Origin: Dictyostelium discoideum
Lineage: Eukaryota
Direction of reading: 5' to 3'
Assembly (NCBI GenBank): GCA_000004695.1
Contig: CM000152.2
Span: forward strand, 3,008,001 to 3,072,000
DNA: 64,000 bases
Shown here in pieces: positions 51,961-59,275 of this stretch (positions are counted from its first letter, which is position 1; each line of letters starts with the position of its first letter). A model generated the notes under the pieces. The model saw only the letters and a list, made by a program, of their open reading frames with translations. It had not been told where the DNA came from and ran no database searches. The position numbers and the translations under genes are program-made.

Positions 51961-52009
<49 letters not shown>

Positions 52010-52631
52010 TTGGGGGGTGTAGAGTGTGTTTAGTGACGTAATATATTTGTTGAGGTTTGATGGTAGTGCTACTGTGTGTAGTGGTGAGTTCCAGTGTTTG
52101 CTAAATCTTTCGAGTTGTAGGGAGATGATGTTTTTGAATTTTTTTATTTGTTCGTTGTTGGTTGCTTTTTTTTCTTGTCTGATTAGTTTGTATATGTTGT
52201 TTTTTGTTCTTTCCCAGGCTGCTGTTTGAGTTTTCTTTAGTTCGTGTACTAGTAGTTGTTTTCTTAAGTTTTTGAGTGTTATTCCTTCGTGGATTTTCTT
52301 GTTTCTTCTTCTCCAGATGTTTTCGCAAATAATGGCTATGGCGTTGGCTGTTAATGGAATGTCTAGTCTGTTGAAGATTTCTATTCCCCAATTGATTCTG
52401 GATCCTCCAGATTTTTCTTGAATGTAGTTGATGCACTCTTGAGTTTCTTTAATGTGTGATTTGCATTTGAAGAAGATGTGTTCTGAGGTTTCCTGTTCGT
52501 TACACCAGATGCAAGGGGCGTTGTGGATCTTTGGAAGAGCTTTAAGAGCTAATCTCCATAGGAGGTCTCTTCTTTTCAAGTTGACTATTTTCCTGATTTA
52601 TTTTAAAATGGACAGGAGCAAAAAAAACGAA
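51961..52631 (-). mobile_element. 5'-truncated tRNA-gene-targeted non-LTR retrotransposon fragment (TRE-like): C-terminal ORF2 with CCHC zinc knuckle plus 3' poly(A)45
   Basis: Minus-strand ORF open from ~52600 to TAA at 52004. It encodes ...LKALPKIHNAPCIWCNEQETSEHIFFKCKSHIKETQECINYI... (C-x2-C-x8-H-x4-C, typical ORF2 C-terminus of L1-clade/TRE elements). 38-nt 3' UTR, then A45 (T45 on + strand, 51961..52005). The truncated 5' end abuts the 5' end of tRNA-Asn at 52646 (<50 bp), the characteristic Dictyostelium TRE target position. The span 51807..51960 may also belong to the element. Confidence 0.7.
52004..52600 (-). CDS. Retroelement ORF2 C-terminal fragment (no authentic start; truncated reverse-transcriptase tail with zinc knuckle)
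   Basis: Track ORF 52004..52579 (TTG pseudo-start). Upstream frame open to ~52600 with no ATG. Basic K/R-rich composition and higher GC than flanking DNA. Confidence 0.6.
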
Positions 52632-52645
52632 GTTTCATCAAAAAT

Positions 52646-52718
52646 GCCTGGATGGCTCAGTAGGCAGAGCGAGCGGCTGTTAACCGCTAGGTCCATGGTT
52701 CGATCCCATGTCTAGGCG
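52646..52718 (+). tRNA. tRNA-Asn (anticodon GUU), 73 nt, no intron, CCA not encoded
   Basis: Acceptor stem GCCTGGA/TCTAGGC (one G-U pair). D-arm GCTCAGTAGGCAGAGC. Anticodon stem-loop AGCGG-CTGTTAA-CCGCT (GTT at positions 34-36 with U33/A37). Variable loop AGGTC. T-arm CATGG-TTCGATC-CCATG. Discriminator G. Confidence 0.9.
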
Positions 52719-53340
52719 AAAATTTTGAAGCTCGAAAAAAATAAATCACAGGTTCAATTCCCGAAAAAACAGAAAACTAGAAAAAATCTCATTCAAAACT
52801 TCCATACAAACAAAAAACAATTCTCTTTATTAGATAATTTTTTAAATAAAAAATAAAAAAATAACTTTTTTAAAATTTTTTTTAAATAATGAAATTGTTA
52901 AAATGAGGGTAAAAATATTTATTTTAATATTTCAAAAGATTAAATTATTTATTTTTTCTATTTTTTTTAATTTTTTTTTTTTTTTTTTTTTTTTTTTCAA
53001 TAAAAGGTATTTTATAACATCAAGGATTAGCCACCTTTCGATATTCTTTCAATTATGTCATGTTAGTAAATTAAAAGGTTAATTTTTTATTTTATTTTAA
53101 AATTTTTAAATTTCCCAAACCCATCAAAGTATTTCATGACGAAAGCATTTAATGAAAAGTTGAATTGCTTAAAAAATTAATAAATTGATTTTCATTATTT
53201 TTTCACATTAACTAATTTTCAAAGATTAATGTGATAAAAAAAAATTATTTTTTTAATTTCCCAAACCTTTAAAAGCATTTCATGATGAAAAGTCAAATCT
53301 AACCCACCAAAACACAAATTCTTTGAAAATATTTCAAGTG

Positions 53341-53637: not shown

Positions 53638-55720
53638 ATGGAAGGACCATTAATTTTAGTTTTAGTAAAATTTTTTTTAAAGTTTATTGCTTATTTATTT
53701 TCTTTATTAGCCATACCTATTACACTTTATTCAATAGTTTTAAATGTATTGTATCATTTTTTTAATTTTTTTTTTTTTATCCTCACAAAAACCCCACAAA
53801 AACCACTAACTTTTTTTTTTTTTTTTTTTTTTTATTTTCAGAAAATATTAAAATATGATTGTAAAGATAGTCCAGGAGGGCATTTTTTAATATTTATACC
53901 AAGAATAATTTTGGTAATACCATTTTTCTTTTCATTCCCATTATTAGCATATTTATATGGATGGCTAGTTGATAAAGCAATTCAAGGTGCAGTTTATGTA
54001 CCATTTGTAATTGCAATTGGATTTTTATTTGCAATAGTAATTGGTTATTGGTTCACAAGATCAATGAGTTTATTTAAAGATTCAATTAGTAAAATGAAAA
54101 TAACGTAAATATATATTTATAAAGAAGAAAAAAAAAAAAAAAAAAAAAGAATAATTACTAACCCATTTCAAAAATAAAGTGGAGATGAAAGTTATTTTAA
54201 AGGACTTGGAGAAAGTCTTTTAGATATTGGTGCAGTATTTGCATTTTTTATATCAATTATTACAATAGTTAGAATTCCATTCATGTTAATGGCATTAGCA
54301 AAAAGAAGTACTTTTGAGTATGATAAAAAGTCAATTAGAAAGAATTTATTCATTCATATGTTTTTAATCATTTTTGATATTTTATCATTACCTTCACTAT
54401 TAATTGTTTTATTAACAATTTTAAGAGCTGGTTCATTATTTTCAAAAATTAAAAAAGTAAGTTTTTATATTATTTTTATTTATTTATCAATTGGTTCCAA
54501 AAAAATATTATTATTATTATTATTTTTTATTTTTTTTCTAATCATTTTTTTATTAATTATCAAAAAAAGGATTATTCAACACCATGGAGAATATGTTTTA
54601 ATTTAAATCTTAGATTAGAAATTTTAAAAAATGCAATAATTGTTTTCTTAGAATTTGGAGTAATGTTATTAAGTTTTGTTTTAATTTTAGCACCATGGAG
54701 AATTCCAACTGCAATTAAAGAATTTAAAAAAGGTAAATCTCAAGGTGAAAAATTTGGACAATACTTTGTTGAAGAATTAAATGCATTAGTAGATTTAGGT
54801 GTAATTTTAATATGTACACCATTACTTGTTACTCTTTATAGAATACCTGTATTAATTCATAAATTTCGTAGAAATGATGTTGTAAGTATTAATTATTCTT
54901 ATTATTATTATTATTATTATTAAAATTTACAATAGAATTAATTTATTAATTTAACTTTTTTTATACAAAAAGACAAATGCAAGAGAAAGAAGAATTGAAG
55001 CATTATTTCAAACATTATTTATTATAGTTGATTTCTTTATATTATTATTTTCAATATTTATATTGATTACAATTTATAGAGTACCAAGAACCATTAGAAA
55101 GATTTTAGATTCACCACATAGATATTATGAAAAGATTACAATTCAATTCTTAAAGATTTGGGCAGATGTACCATTCTTGTTTATGGGATTAATTGTAACT
55201 ATTTTATTATGGAGAGCACCATTTATGTATACTCAAATGTATAGAGCAACCACTAAAAGAGATAGAAGATCAATTATTAAACGTCATTTCCTTTGGTTAT
55301 GGATTGATATTTTAGATTTACCATTTGTTTTAAGTAGTTTCATTATCTTATTAACATTATGGAGATCCTATGCATTCGTTTGTGGTTTCATTACAATGGA
55401 TACTCGTAAAAAGCAAAGAATATTCGTTATTAAACAAATCTTTTATTGGTTTATGGATATACCAACTTTTATTGGTCTATTATTAATTACTATCACAATT
55501 TATAGATTACCAAAAACCATAAAATTATTAAGAAGTTATTTTAAATATACAAATTTTGATATGGATTTATCAAAAGTTAATTCCTCCTCTTCAAATACCT
55601 CAAATACTTCTAGAAGAGATGCATATACTTTTGAAGATTCACAAATACCACCAATACCATCAGAAGAAGAAAATGAAGATAATCCAACACCAGTAATTCA
55701 AAATAATCAATCAAAATCAA

Positions 55721-55755
<35 letters not shown>

Positions 55756-58512
55756 TTAGAAATTGAAGAAGAAAGATTTTCATCTTGGCGTAAAGTTGTA
55801 TTAAGTCAATTATTTTTATTATTAATTGATATACCATTCCCAATATTAATCTTAATGACAATGTGGAGATTACCAATTTTAATTAAGAGATTAAAAGAAA
55901 TTAATGATCCAATTAGAAAATATTCATTAAGAAGATTATTAATTTTAAGATATGTTTTATTGACATTTTTAGATTTGCTTTGTTTGGTACCAACATTATT
56001 TATATTGTTAACAGGTTGGAGAATACCATCATTCATATCAATGGTAAAGCAATACCAACGTGGTGACAATGAACATAGATTACTTGGTTTACTATTTTGG
56101 GATACTCTAGTCGATATACCATTTGTATTGATGGGTTTAATTACAATACCATTCCTTTGGAGAGGTCCATTTTTAATTAAAACCATTTTCATCAAACGTG
56201 AATGTAAAACCGATAAAGAAGCAAGAATAATGGCAGCAAAATATTTGGGTGTATGTTTATTGGATTTGGTAATATTCTTGGAATTAATTATAATCACTTG
56301 TACAATGTGGAGATTTAAAACTTTTATTAAAACATTTAAAGATGAATTAAAAAGAAGAGAAACTGATAGATCATCACATAAATTCTTTCAAACTATTTGT
56401 TTCTTTTATTCAACATCAATCACTTGTATTATCATTGTAGTTGATATTTGGAAATCTATTCAAATTTTAATCATTTGTTTATTCATTAAACAAATTGCAC
56501 CACTTTATAGAGCAATTAAAACCAAAATTGCAGAAACACCAGATTTCACATTGGCTGATACTTTGAAAATTATAGATTACTATTTCCTTCATACTCTTAT
56601 GGATGTACCACATGTTTTCTTAATACCAATTAAATTATTGGCTTTCCCATTCCTACCAATTCATTTATATTTAAAGTATAGAATTAAAGCAAAACAAAAT
56701 GAACAAAGAAAATTACAATTGGAAAAGCAACGTGAAGAAATTCAAATTCATATTCAAAGACAATATGATAATTTGGATAATGATTTACCAATTATACCAA
56801 TACCAAATAATCCAACATTGGTTAAAGATGAAGATTTAATTGAAACATCTACTACAATGTCATTTATTCATTATCCAATACTTTGGTTACATGATACTTC
56901 AAAAGAATTATTAAATTATTATGAATTGGATAAATTCTTTATAATTAATATGTTTGGATTAGGTTTAATAGTAATTAATGAACTTTCATTGATTGTTGTA
57001 TTGGTAAATTGTTTATACATGTTTTTGGTTACACTTGGTTCACCAGCATGGAGAGGTACAATGGAAAAATATGGTTGGGATGCATTGGGTAAAGCTTCAG
57101 GTCCAATGGTGATTTTCGAATATATTACAGTGGTATTACAAGCTTTATTATTCCCAATATTCATTTTAATTCAAATTGCAATCGTACTATTACCAACTCT
57201 ATTGGCACTTGGTTTTTATCCATCACCAAATCTCGATTTCGTTCAATATTGGAAAGGTTTCTTTAGTGAACGTTCTTTCTGGAGAGAGGCTTCCCAATTT
57301 TCAAGTGGAGTTTGGGTGGCTCAAGCATTTTGGTTCTTGGTTTGTGTTGTATCTTGGCATGTAACATTTAAAGTCGCTAAAAAACATATACCAATTTTCT
57401 CACCATGGAAATCATATTATTGGTTAGTAAAGAAAGTATTCCATGGTAGAATTTGGTTCTGCTATAGATGGTTATTGGTTCAAGGTACTAGAGTTTGTTA
57501 TAAATTAAGAAGAGCTTGTTTAATTGGTGAATTGTTAATGTTCCCATTATTCATCATTTGGACTTGTTGGTCATTCATTATACCAATTGTAACAAAGATT
57601 TATTATATTTTCATTGCTTCTGGTATCATTTCATTAGGTTTAATAGTTATTGCTTATAAAGTTGTAAAAGAGAATTGGAATGATAAAGCTGCCAATGGTG
57701 GTCAAGATGGTGGTGCTGATAAGAATCAATTATTAATGAATCTACAATCGGTAGAATGTGAATTGCCAGAAAGTGGTGGTATAGTATTTAAATTCCAAGC
57801 TAATAAATCATATGATCAATCGTTAATTCAAATTAAAGATGCACGTCTTTCAATTGAAGGTGAATCACTTTGGGAGGCAATCTATCAAATTGTTGGTAAA
57901 ACTAAAGTTAGAGCGGCATTAATGGTAGTTGGTTATCCAATCTCTTTGGTACCAATGTTTTTAGATGTTGATCAAGTTAATCAAACTACTCAAAATTTGG
58001 ATGATTCTGGTAGAACTCAAAGAACATGTTCTTTCCAATTAAAAATTGGTATTGAAGGTAGTAAATTCTTAATGAAAAAGAAATTAATTACAAGATTATT
58101 AAATCAAATTAGAGAAATTAATAATCAACCATTCGAAATTGTAATTGAATATGGTAAAAAGAATTTTGGTTGGGAAAAACATGGAAATATACTTAAATTT
58201 AAAACTTCTGTTACAACATTATTTGATAATACAATTAATTCAATTAATAATTATGAAAGTTATTTTGATAATAATAATAATATTCGTTTAAATGATATTG
58301 GTACACCATCTTATAATAATAATAATAATAATAATAGATTATCTCCAATAGCTCCAGCCAGAAATAATACCTCATCAAGTGTTAGAAATGCAAGAAATAG
58401 TGTTGAAATTCAAAGAAGTCATTATACCATAAATAATGATGAAATTGATCCTGAACAAATTGAAATTTTAAGACAAATCCAACTTGAGAATGAAAAAAGA
58501 AAACAACAACAA

Positions 58513-58548
<36 letters not shown>

Positions 58549-58824
58549 GAAGAAAATGAAAATAAACAAGAACAAGAACAAGAACAAGAACATCAACAAG
58601 AACAAGAACATGAACAAGAACAAGGACTTGAAGAGCAAGAGCAAGAACAAATTAGTCCAGTGGTTGAATCAACATCATCATCATCATCATCCCAATCACC
58701 AATTGAATCATCAATTCAACCAGTGGTTCAAGAACAATCAATTACTATGGATGATTATATTTTAGATGATGGTCAAGATACTGAAGAATTTTATAAAAGT
58801 TTAGATAAAAGTAATAATGTGTAA
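53638..58824 (+). CDS. Large polytopic membrane protein (~1600 aa) built from at least 12 tandem 'hydrophobic helix + W-R-x-P' modules, plus a C-terminal Gln/Glu-rich tail; 4 exons (a 5th possible)
   Basis: Exons 53638..54104 (an optional in-frame 91-nt intron 53746..53836 cannot be excluded), 54180..54456, 54570..54881, 54973..58824. Recurrent unit: acidic-residue-[IVL]-P-F-(hydrophobic)n-G-L-(hydrophobic)n-[WY]-R-x-P-x-x-I. Examples: ADVPFLFMGLIVTILLWRAPFMY, LDLPFVLSSFIILLTLWRSYAFV, MDIPTFIGLLLITITIYRLPKTI, IDIPFPILILMTMWRLPILI, LDLLCLVPTLFILLTGWRIPSFI, VDIPFVLMGLITIPFLWRGPFLI, LDLVIFLELIIITCTMWRFKTFI, ILAPWRIPTAI, TLYRIPVLI, TIVRIPFML. Confidence 0.65.
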
Positions 58825-59275
58825 ATTAGTAAAAAAAAAAAAAAAAAAAAAGATAAAAAAATAATTCAAAATAACAATTTAGCTTTATATTTATTTATCT
58901 ATTTAATATATAACCATAAAAAAATAAATTATTAATACTGTTATATATTAATATTGAATTATTTTTTTTTTTTTTATAATTTTATTTTTTTAAAAACTTT
59001 TTTTTTTAGTTGATGAAGCAAATTCAAAAAAAAGAACTACATCTACAACAACAACACCTACAAAATTAAGAAAAAGAAATATGAAAAAATAACAACAATT
59101 GTTTTAAATACTCTTTATCTCTTTCTTCTGTATTTCTAAGTGTACTTAATTTTTTAAAAATTGTTTTTTTAATTTTTATTTGTTTCTTAAAAAAAAAAGA
59201 AAGAAAGAAATAAATTATATTATTTTATTGGTATATTATTATTATTTTTTTTATTTTTTTTATTTTTTTATTTTT

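Follow-up and report, generated by a model that had tools for sequence, protein, structure and literature searches.

Gene structure and product

The gene at positions 53638–58824 (+) of a 64-kb stretch of Dictyostelium discoideum DNA (contig CM000152.2; hereafter the window) encodes a repeat-built membrane protein. Its D. discoideum AX4 database entry, DDB_G0280375 (Q54VR7), is annotated as "uncharacterized". An earlier note, made from the letters alone, had described the product as an unrecognised membrane protein of ~1600 amino acids (aa) with at least 12 tandem modules, each a hydrophobic helix followed by W-R-x-P. We joined the open reading frame (ORF) pieces across GT..AG introns and obtained a product of 1,603 aa:

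53638–58824 (+), whole gene: 5 exons, 1,603-aa product, stop included
53638–53745, 53842–54104, 54180–54456, 54570–54881 and 54973–58824 (+), exons
58811–59093 (+), possible alternative 3' end or sixth exon: donor A/GTAATA (58811), acceptor ...ttttttag/TTGATG (59010/59011)

The intron donors are, in order, GTATTG, GTAAAT, GTAAGT and GTAAGT, and the spliced result is a single open frame. This model is one of six near-alike GT..AG combinations that keep the frame open, their differences being confined to the intron 1 donor and to the intron 4 ends; the GTATTG and GTAAGT donors decided the choice. The product is 98% identical to one D. discoideum protein, whose cluster also contains DDB_G0280375, and, with the exception of the annotated N- and C-termini, identical to AX4 DDB_G0280375. 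Full-length orthologues are present in eight dictyostelids, and seven other dictyostelid proteins share 39–90% identity with the window product along their entire length. Independent annotations match our exon model.

The N-terminus of our model (MEGPLILVLV...) agrees with four independent annotations from other strains and species and disagrees with that of AX4. The AX4 database protein (P0015) begins MAMALAVNGMST.., whereas MEGPLILVLVKFFLKFIAYLFSLLA.. is encoded at 53638 in exon 1. Since the MEGPLILVLVKFFLKFIAYLFSLLA.. start is also common to the annotations of other strains, D. citrinum, D. firmibasis and Polysphondylium, the AX4 5' exon of DDB_G0280375 is probably mis-annotated.

At the 3' end, the alternative splice would swap the terminal ..KSNNV for ..K-IDEANSKKRTTSTTTTPTKLRKRNMKK, each followed by a stop. 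The spliced form is used in the annotations of other D. discoideum strains and D. citrinum, the unspliced ..KSNNV end is found in the D. firmibasis and D. purpureum proteins, and the AX4 annotation has a third junction.

A tandem repeat with a fixed Asp-to-Arg spacing

Within its first 900 aa the product has eight copies of the strict motif [WY]RxP, where 0.14 would be expected, and none of 5,000 composition-preserving shuffles reached eight. The copies are spaced by 45–51 aa or multiples thereof. A hidden Markov model (HMM) seeded on these eight units only recovers four unseeded ones (units 1, 2, 7 and 12) with independent E-values (i-E) of 1.6e-4 to 2.5e-9. After two HMM iterations over the family described below, 12 canonical units were located at aa 133–775, with a period of 45–51 aa (~47). 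The earlier note had proposed units of about 45–50 residues and had named loss of the periodicity under an objective alignment as grounds for abandoning the repeat; under the HMM alignment it persisted. A six-frame hmmsearch with the unit profile (profile A1) placed 12 units in 54193–56343 and revealed no further copy elsewhere in the 64-kb window. The iterated HMM and the six-frame search together define the 12 canonical units:

54193–54303 (+), repeat unit 1 (..LLDIGAVFAFFISIITIVRIPFM..), not seeded
54331–54456 (+), repeat unit 2 (..FDILSLPSLLIVLLTILRAGSLF..), not seeded
54603–54731 (+), repeat unit 3 (..LEFGVMLLSFVLILAPWRIPTAI..), D replaced by E
54747–54872 (+), repeat unit 4 (..VDLGVILICTPLLVTLYRIPVLI..)
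54982–55110 (+), repeat unit 5 (..VDFFILLFSIFILITIYRVPRTI..)
55123–55245 (+), repeat unit 6 (..ADVPFLFMGLIVTILLWRAPFMY..)
55258–55383 (+), repeat unit 7 (..LDLPFVLSSFIILLTLWRSYAFV..), not seeded
55408–55539 (+), repeat unit 8 (..MDIPTFIGLLLITITIYRLPKTI..)
55783–55899 (+), repeat unit 9 (..IDIPFPILILMTMWRLPILI..), D-x12-R variant
55930–56052 (+), repeat unit 10 (..LDLLCLVPTLFILLTGWRIPSFI..)
56068–56190 (+), repeat unit 11 (..VDIPFVLMGLITIPFLWRGPFLI..)
56215–56343 (+), repeat unit 12 (..LDLVIFLELIIITCTMWRFKTFI..), not seeded
56395–56688 (+), two degenerate units (..VVDIWKSIQILIICLFIKQIAPLYRAIK.. and ..MDVPHVFLIPIKLLAFPFLPIHLYLKYRIK..), aa ~795–892, from the Acytostelium orthologue and a region HMM

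The two degenerate units follow the canonical array. In the Acytostelium orthologue P0007, a 13th and a 14th match score as units, and from their order and sequence we infer that they correspond to aa ~795–892 of the window protein. An HMM of this region cross-matches repeat units in 60 family proteins.

To define the signature, conservation was measured in 89 aligned units from five lineages. Arg is conserved in 100% and Asp in 98% of these units, whereas the W/Y preceding the Arg is found in 82%, a Thr three residues earlier in 56% and the Pro two residues past the Arg in 43%. The unit profile begins with R/H and a ~12-residue amphipathic stretch with K/Q on one face, followed by D-[ILV]-(P), a charge-free stretch, [WY]-R-x-P and a basic amphipathic segment; the overall signature is R-x12-D-x15-[WY]R-x-P. 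Some 9–11 mostly hydrophobic, amphipathic residues lie ahead of the Asp, and a Pro is found at D+1 to D+7 in 71% of the units. Across about 195 family proteins, Asp and Arg separated by 15 uncharged residues, D-(15 uncharged)-R, occur 1,169 times, whereas shuffles give 8, and the distribution of spacings peaks sharply at 15. Nine of the 12 window units have exact D-x15-R spacing, one is D-x12-R and two have E or a charged core residue.

These data revise the first description of the unit in two respects. The hydrophobic stretch had been given as 20–23 residues, but what lies between Asp and Arg is purely hydrophobic and, in most units, exactly 15 residues long. W-R-x-P had been taken as the conserved core; the motif is indeed enriched and its Arg invariant, but since Arg, Asp and the fixed spacing between them are better conserved than the Trp/Tyr and the Pro, W-R-x-P is the less conserved part of the R-x12-D-x15-R signature.

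A large family with members in several eukaryotic supergroups

An exhaustive search with the unit profile against 1.84 billion representatives matched 841 cluster representatives at E≤1e-3, 437 at E≤1e-10 and 154 at E≤1e-30. Among the best 150 of the 841 matches, each protein has 5–39 matched stretches. A first search had given five weak matches with a visible unit (Symbiodinium, a EukProt entry and metagenomic proteins), and a word index of 5.8 billion proteins, queried with the 45-column unit profile, returned no relatives, only 102 candidates having words in common. The earlier note had asked whether the repeat occurs outside Dictyostelia; clearly it does, and in several eukaryotic supergroups.

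Because low-complexity words overwhelmed a word-index search with an alignment of 104 proteins (5 matches), the list of taxa was compiled from 25 cluster look-ups. Members in Amoebozoa come from Cavenderia, Mastigamoeba, Pelomyxa, Mastigella, Balamuthia, Clastostelium and Soliformovum, and Acytostelium has a second paralogue. Others come from Anaeramoeba and Paratrimastix (Metamonada), Diphylleia (CRuMs), Artemidia (Diplonemea, Discoba), the dinoflagellates Symbiodinium and Effrenium, and a Tara Oceans contig. The 25 clusters contained no member from animals, fungi or plants, and no search was aimed at showing its absence there. The looked-up members are named "hypothetical" or bear plainly spurious automatic names.

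At a locus with 19–35% GC, like Dictyostelium DNA in general, and in an organism whose proteins are rich in low-complexity sequence, a repeat might arise from AT-rich codon bias, as an I/F/L/K/N-rich translation, or from a wrong gene model. This explanation is already refuted, and we give it practically no weight. The motif count lies far above composition-preserving shuffles, the orthologues of the seven other dictyostelids are full-length, independent annotations agree with the exon model and the unit profile finds 841 representatives. Furthermore, the unit with its D-x15-R spacing is present in the Ala/Arg-rich proteins P0011 and P0010 (Symbiodinium), and the repeat is therefore not due to compositional chance.

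Known families offer no match. The window protein has no match above the gathering score in Pfam-A; a PFF1_TM match (16 bits versus a cut-off of 32.3, in a low-complexity loop) and a weak TRAP-gamma match (E 0.014) were dismissed as compositional. Five distant relatives have no Pfam-A match, and 21 long relatives match only F-box, F-box-like and one RanBP zinc finger. A search of NCBIfam found nothing, and sequence, profile and fold searches of the PDB revealed no similarity to any solved structure. Literature searches for DDB_G0280375 and Q54VR7 found no paper. The proposal of an unrecognised repeat and a candidate undescribed membrane family is supported. Judged by its sequence, the protein is a member of a large, apparently ancient and previously undescribed family of repeat-built giant membrane proteins. 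We delimit this family by at least five tandem ~45–50-aa units (profile A1, D-(15 uncharged)-R) and by a Trp-rich membrane domain and an alpha/beta domain 3' of the array; the window protein has 12 such units and both domains.

Domains outside the array

The array is preceded by an N-terminal domain, interrupted by an acidic loop and followed by two conserved domains and a disordered, low-complexity tail:

53638–54192 (+, introns included), N-terminal domain, aa 1–125, with 3–4 hydrophobic helices; hydropathy segments at aa 2–39, 47–79 and 81–111
55543–55782 (+), acidic low-complexity loop, aa 511–590, splitting the array between units 8 and 9; from the 8-species alignment A2 and AlphaFold2 (AF2)
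56830–57687 (+), Trp-rich polytopic membrane domain, aa 940–1225, ~8–10 helices; from an HMM, alignment A3 and AF2
57715–58248 (+), soluble alpha/beta domain, aa 1235–1412, with motifs G-Y-P-I-S-L-x-P and E-Y-G; from an HMM and AF2
58249–58824 (+), low-complexity tail (poly-N, poly-Q, (EQ)n, poly-S) ending in ..EEFYKSLDKSNNV and the stop; from the translation

The basic linkers between units and the Q/E-rich tail, both described earlier, are present in the translation. An HMM of the N-terminal domain also matches the non-dictyostelid protein P0053 (Clastostelium), as well as P0080, P0117 and P0125. The acidic loop is poorly conserved and has a predicted local distance difference test (pLDDT) score of 25–36 in AF2. 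It contains an E-[ED]-D-N-P-x-P motif (aa ~550–562, window ~55660–55700) in which D556, P558 and P560 are invariant in 8/8 dictyostelid sequences, and which could be a short linear sorting or binding motif.

Both C-terminal HMMs were built from dictyostelids and match proteins of Mastigamoeba, Pelomyxa, Balamuthia and Soliformovum. The HMM of the Trp-rich domain matches 25 of 198 stored proteins, including those of Mastigamoeba, Pelomyxa and Balamuthia. Its invariant columns in A3 include E58, N67, Q122, R234 and eight Trp (columns are numbered by position in the first row, whose start is protein residue 933), and AF2 predicts it as all-helical with a pLDDT of about 60–80. The alpha/beta domain, predicted as beta strands and helices with a pLDDT of about 60–79, is matched in 31 stored proteins, in some of which it is placed mid-array; PDB fold searches gave no fold match for it.

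Three layouts recur in the family: NT-R12-TMD-SOL, Rn-FBOX-(TMD)-SOL and R5-7-SOL-R2. The F-box of the second is recognised by Pfam (F-box or F-box-like) in 7 of 21 long members, with a best E of 7e-14. An F-box HMM iterated on the family finds it in 12 members, usually between the array and the C-terminal module; the carriers include Balamuthia, Pelomyxa, Mastigella and Soliformovum. Neither Pfam nor this HMM detects an F-box in the window protein, and none is present in any dictyostelid orthologue. A literature search with the phrase "transmembrane F-box protein" returned no paper.

Further domains were observed in single members. The 4,003-aa metagenomic protein P0200 has precomputed Pfam matches to a WW domain and a RanBP-type zinc finger, and in Balamuthia P0047 and Soliformovum P0051 the F-box is preceded by an additional, incomplete alpha/beta domain. 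These extras hint at further cytosolic interaction modules in the family.

Every unit has invariant charges in or beside its hydrophobic core, and the C-terminal domain contains many Trp residues as well as E, N, Q and R that are conserved within the membrane. Such a protein might be an ion- or lipid-conducting machine, in which the Asp/Arg ladder (12–39 per protein) or the C-terminal polar residues form a hydrophilic track, as in a channel or scramblase. The array could then be a tension-sensing blade that gates the C-terminal module as in Piezo, whose overall layout is parallel. However, comparisons of sequence and fold linked the protein to no channel, transporter or scramblase, and the F-box of relatives points to a scaffolding or adaptor role; we regard a conducting function as improbable.

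Proposed role of the array

The explanation that we favour, with a probability of roughly 45%, is that an ancient, undescribed family of membrane proteins uses an array of units inserted from the same side as a scaffold, that the C-terminal domains are its functional core and that relatives are linked to the SCF ubiquitin ligase by their F-box. Each unit would be a short, kinked hairpin or wedge that dips into the bilayer, turns at the Asp-Pro element and comes out on the side from which it entered, and the array as a whole would be a long ribbon embedded in the membrane. Neighbouring units may be anchored to one another by the invariant Asp and Arg, fixed 16 residues apart, as structural ion pairs or at the interface. 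The C-terminal Trp-rich membrane and alpha/beta module would be positioned by the array or coupled by it to the state of the membrane. In F-box relatives, the in-line F-box would recruit Skp1/SCF and thereby make the protein a membrane-resident ubiquitin-ligase adaptor, whereas the Dictyostelium protein, without an F-box, would carry the core membrane function only. These assignments of scaffold, core and SCF adaptor are drawn from sequence.

The same-side arrangement is suggested by the charge of the linkers. Of 548 inter-unit linkers, 90% are net-positive (mean +3.6), with 6.6 K+R each. Odd and even linkers have the same mean charge, the lag-1 correlation is positive and no alternation is seen. 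According to the positive-inside rule, positive linkers favour the cytosolic side. Since the linkers are strongly basic without odd/even alternation, all of them are probably cytosolic, which favours each unit entering and leaving the membrane on the same side. Unit identity is equal at lag-1, lag-2 and lag-3 (27–28%), no two-unit super-repeat was found when unit similarity was tested, and P0009 has near-identical consecutive single units. The earlier note had suggested a repeated re-entrant or interfacial anchoring motif. The uniformly positive, non-alternating linkers fit this suggestion and speak for a hairpin with both ends cytosolic, but AF2 (pLDDT 47) is uninformative and co-evolution contains no hairpin contacts, so neither lends it support.

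Several observations weigh against our explanation. AF2 on aa 1–905 with 8 sequences reached a pLDDT of 47, too low for use in a fold search, and a predicted template-modelling score (pTM) of 0.28, and it draws most units not as a hairpin but as one long helix (roughly 30–47 residues), some of them broken near W-R or D-I-P. Mean-field direct-coupling analysis of 1,159 units (Meff 976) yields only local helical couplings within a unit (i+1/3/4/7) and no coupling of helix A with helix B (maximum 0.62, mean -0.07). Two adjacent-unit couplings rise above the lag-2/3 noise ceiling: one, a charge-complementary pair, joins R+7 to D-7 of the following unit, and the other joins R-3 to D-3. These set R(n) near D(n+1), which a serpentine chain fits at least as well. 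An invariant Asp at a buried hairpin tip is also energetically awkward. Finally, the functional part of the explanation draws solely on domain co-occurrence in relatives, the window protein itself having no F-box.

With regard to the coupling analysis, it should be noted that the pair (13,-3), one of the two adjacent-unit couplings, is partly driven by orthologous unit pairs, and that an apparent D/R coupling was rejected as an artefact of invariant columns.

The predominance of a single long helix per unit in AF2, the lack of intra-unit A x B co-evolution and the centring of the sole above-noise adjacent-unit couplings on R(n)/D(n+1) speak for a conventional serpentine polytopic protein. On this view a unit would be a single long helix with one passage through the membrane, the D-x15-R core would be the span and successive helices would be antiparallel. 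At the two interfaces, R(n) and D(n+1), and likewise D(n) and R(n+1), would lie at the same height and make up ionic "zippers", and the linkers would be amphipathic helix-turn-helix elements on both faces, as the charge-complementary (R+7, D-7) pairs suggest. Fifteen uncharged residues with their Asp and Arg caps, about 25 Å, also correspond to the length of a short span of the endoplasmic reticulum type. However, a serpentine chain would place about half of the strongly positive linkers on the non-cytosolic side, in breach of the positive-inside rule and without any alternation of charge. It would also require near-identical neighbouring units to adopt opposite orientations, and no two-unit super-repeat is seen. 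A test for an antiparallel-register band was not significant (permutation p = 0.22). An odd parity of hydrophobic segments upstream of the F-box, seen in 10/11 complete proteins at one threshold, vanished at others (3 to 10/11 over 20 settings) and was rejected as noise. We consider a serpentine chain quite possible, if short of probable, and rank the same-side arrangement slightly ahead of it.

A more far-reaching form of the same-side explanation is that the unit constitutes a new repeat fold, probably present in the last eukaryotic common ancestor, in which 12–39 short intramembrane helices are stapled by Asp-Arg pairs (16-residue spacing). The resulting ribbon would sense or shape the bilayer and be coupled to the C-terminal module and, via the F-box, to SCF in many lineages, as a multi-pass F-box receptor embedded in the membrane, a type for which the phrase search of the literature gave no paper. 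Taken as a whole, we regard this as rather unlikely.

Cluster representatives of the family number in the hundreds and come from at least five eukaryotic supergroups. Because Pfam has no model for it, none of its relatives has a solved structure and literature searches found no paper, the family is a blind spot in the catalogue of membrane-protein architectures. A 15-residue hydrophobic helix capped by Asp and Arg and repeated up to 39 times is an unusual unit, which should suit structure determination and topology mapping, and Dictyostelium offers an easy genetic system for the family. The F-box relatives suggest that SCF ubiquitination is tied directly to a very large scaffold within the membrane; that ligase would then reach membranes by a new route. 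If the array does consist of same-side hairpins, it would exceed all known tandem arrays of these elements in size, with a bearing on membrane bending and partitioning.

Neighbouring genes

The gene is flanked by the following features:

52004–52579 (-), ORF, 36% GC and thus relatively GC-rich, about 66 bp upstream of the tRNA gene and on the opposite strand
52645–52719 (+), tRNA-Asn(GTT) gene, about 900 bp upstream of DDB_G0280375
59276–60277 (-), convergent downstream gene of 333 aa, with ankyrin repeats (E 5.6e-20) and, after them, a Ras-association (RA) domain (E 7.6e-10)

The ORF weakly matches zf-RVT (reverse-transcriptase zinc-binding), with an E of 0.0036 that falls short of the Pfam cut-off, and resembles the end of a tRNA-gene-targeted non-LTR (long terminal repeat) retrotransposon of the Dictyostelium TRE type. 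The ankyrin/RA gene appears to be unrelated to the repeat protein.

Comparison with known membrane proteins

The reticulon-homology and REEP-DP1 hairpins, together with other hairpins of the wedge type, are one point of reference. The hydrophobic segments of the present family, comprising the amphipathic part and the 15-residue core, are about 28–32 residues long, more than one ordinary span needs but not enough for two. As in those proteins, both ends of the segment would be cytosolic, here predicted from the charge pattern, and a role in membrane shaping or scaffolding is conceivable. However, reticulons have two hairpins and no invariant D-x15-R, compared with 12–39 tandem units here, and the window protein has no sequence match to the reticulon Pfam family.

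The "proline-knot" hairpins of oleosins and caleosins also have a Pro-containing turn in the middle of the hydrophobic stretch, as do the 71% of units with a Pro within seven residues of the Asp. In oleosins the hairpin occurs as one unit, is about 72 residues long, contains a P-x5-S-P-x3-P knot and targets lipid-droplet monolayers. The units described here are about 30 residues long, tandem and headed by an invariant Asp, with no Pfam match.

F-box proteins that act as SCF substrate receptors resemble the present family in the F-box of about a dozen members, but differ from the window protein and its dictyostelid orthologues, which have none.

In overall architecture, Piezo offers a parallel. 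It too is a giant protein with a long N-terminal array of repeated membrane units in large copy number (up to 39 here), followed by a C-terminal membrane module with a soluble domain. The window protein has no match to the Piezo Pfam families and no fold match. The Piezo repeat is a 4-helix unit, whereas the repeat described here has one 15-residue hydrophobic core per ~47 aa.

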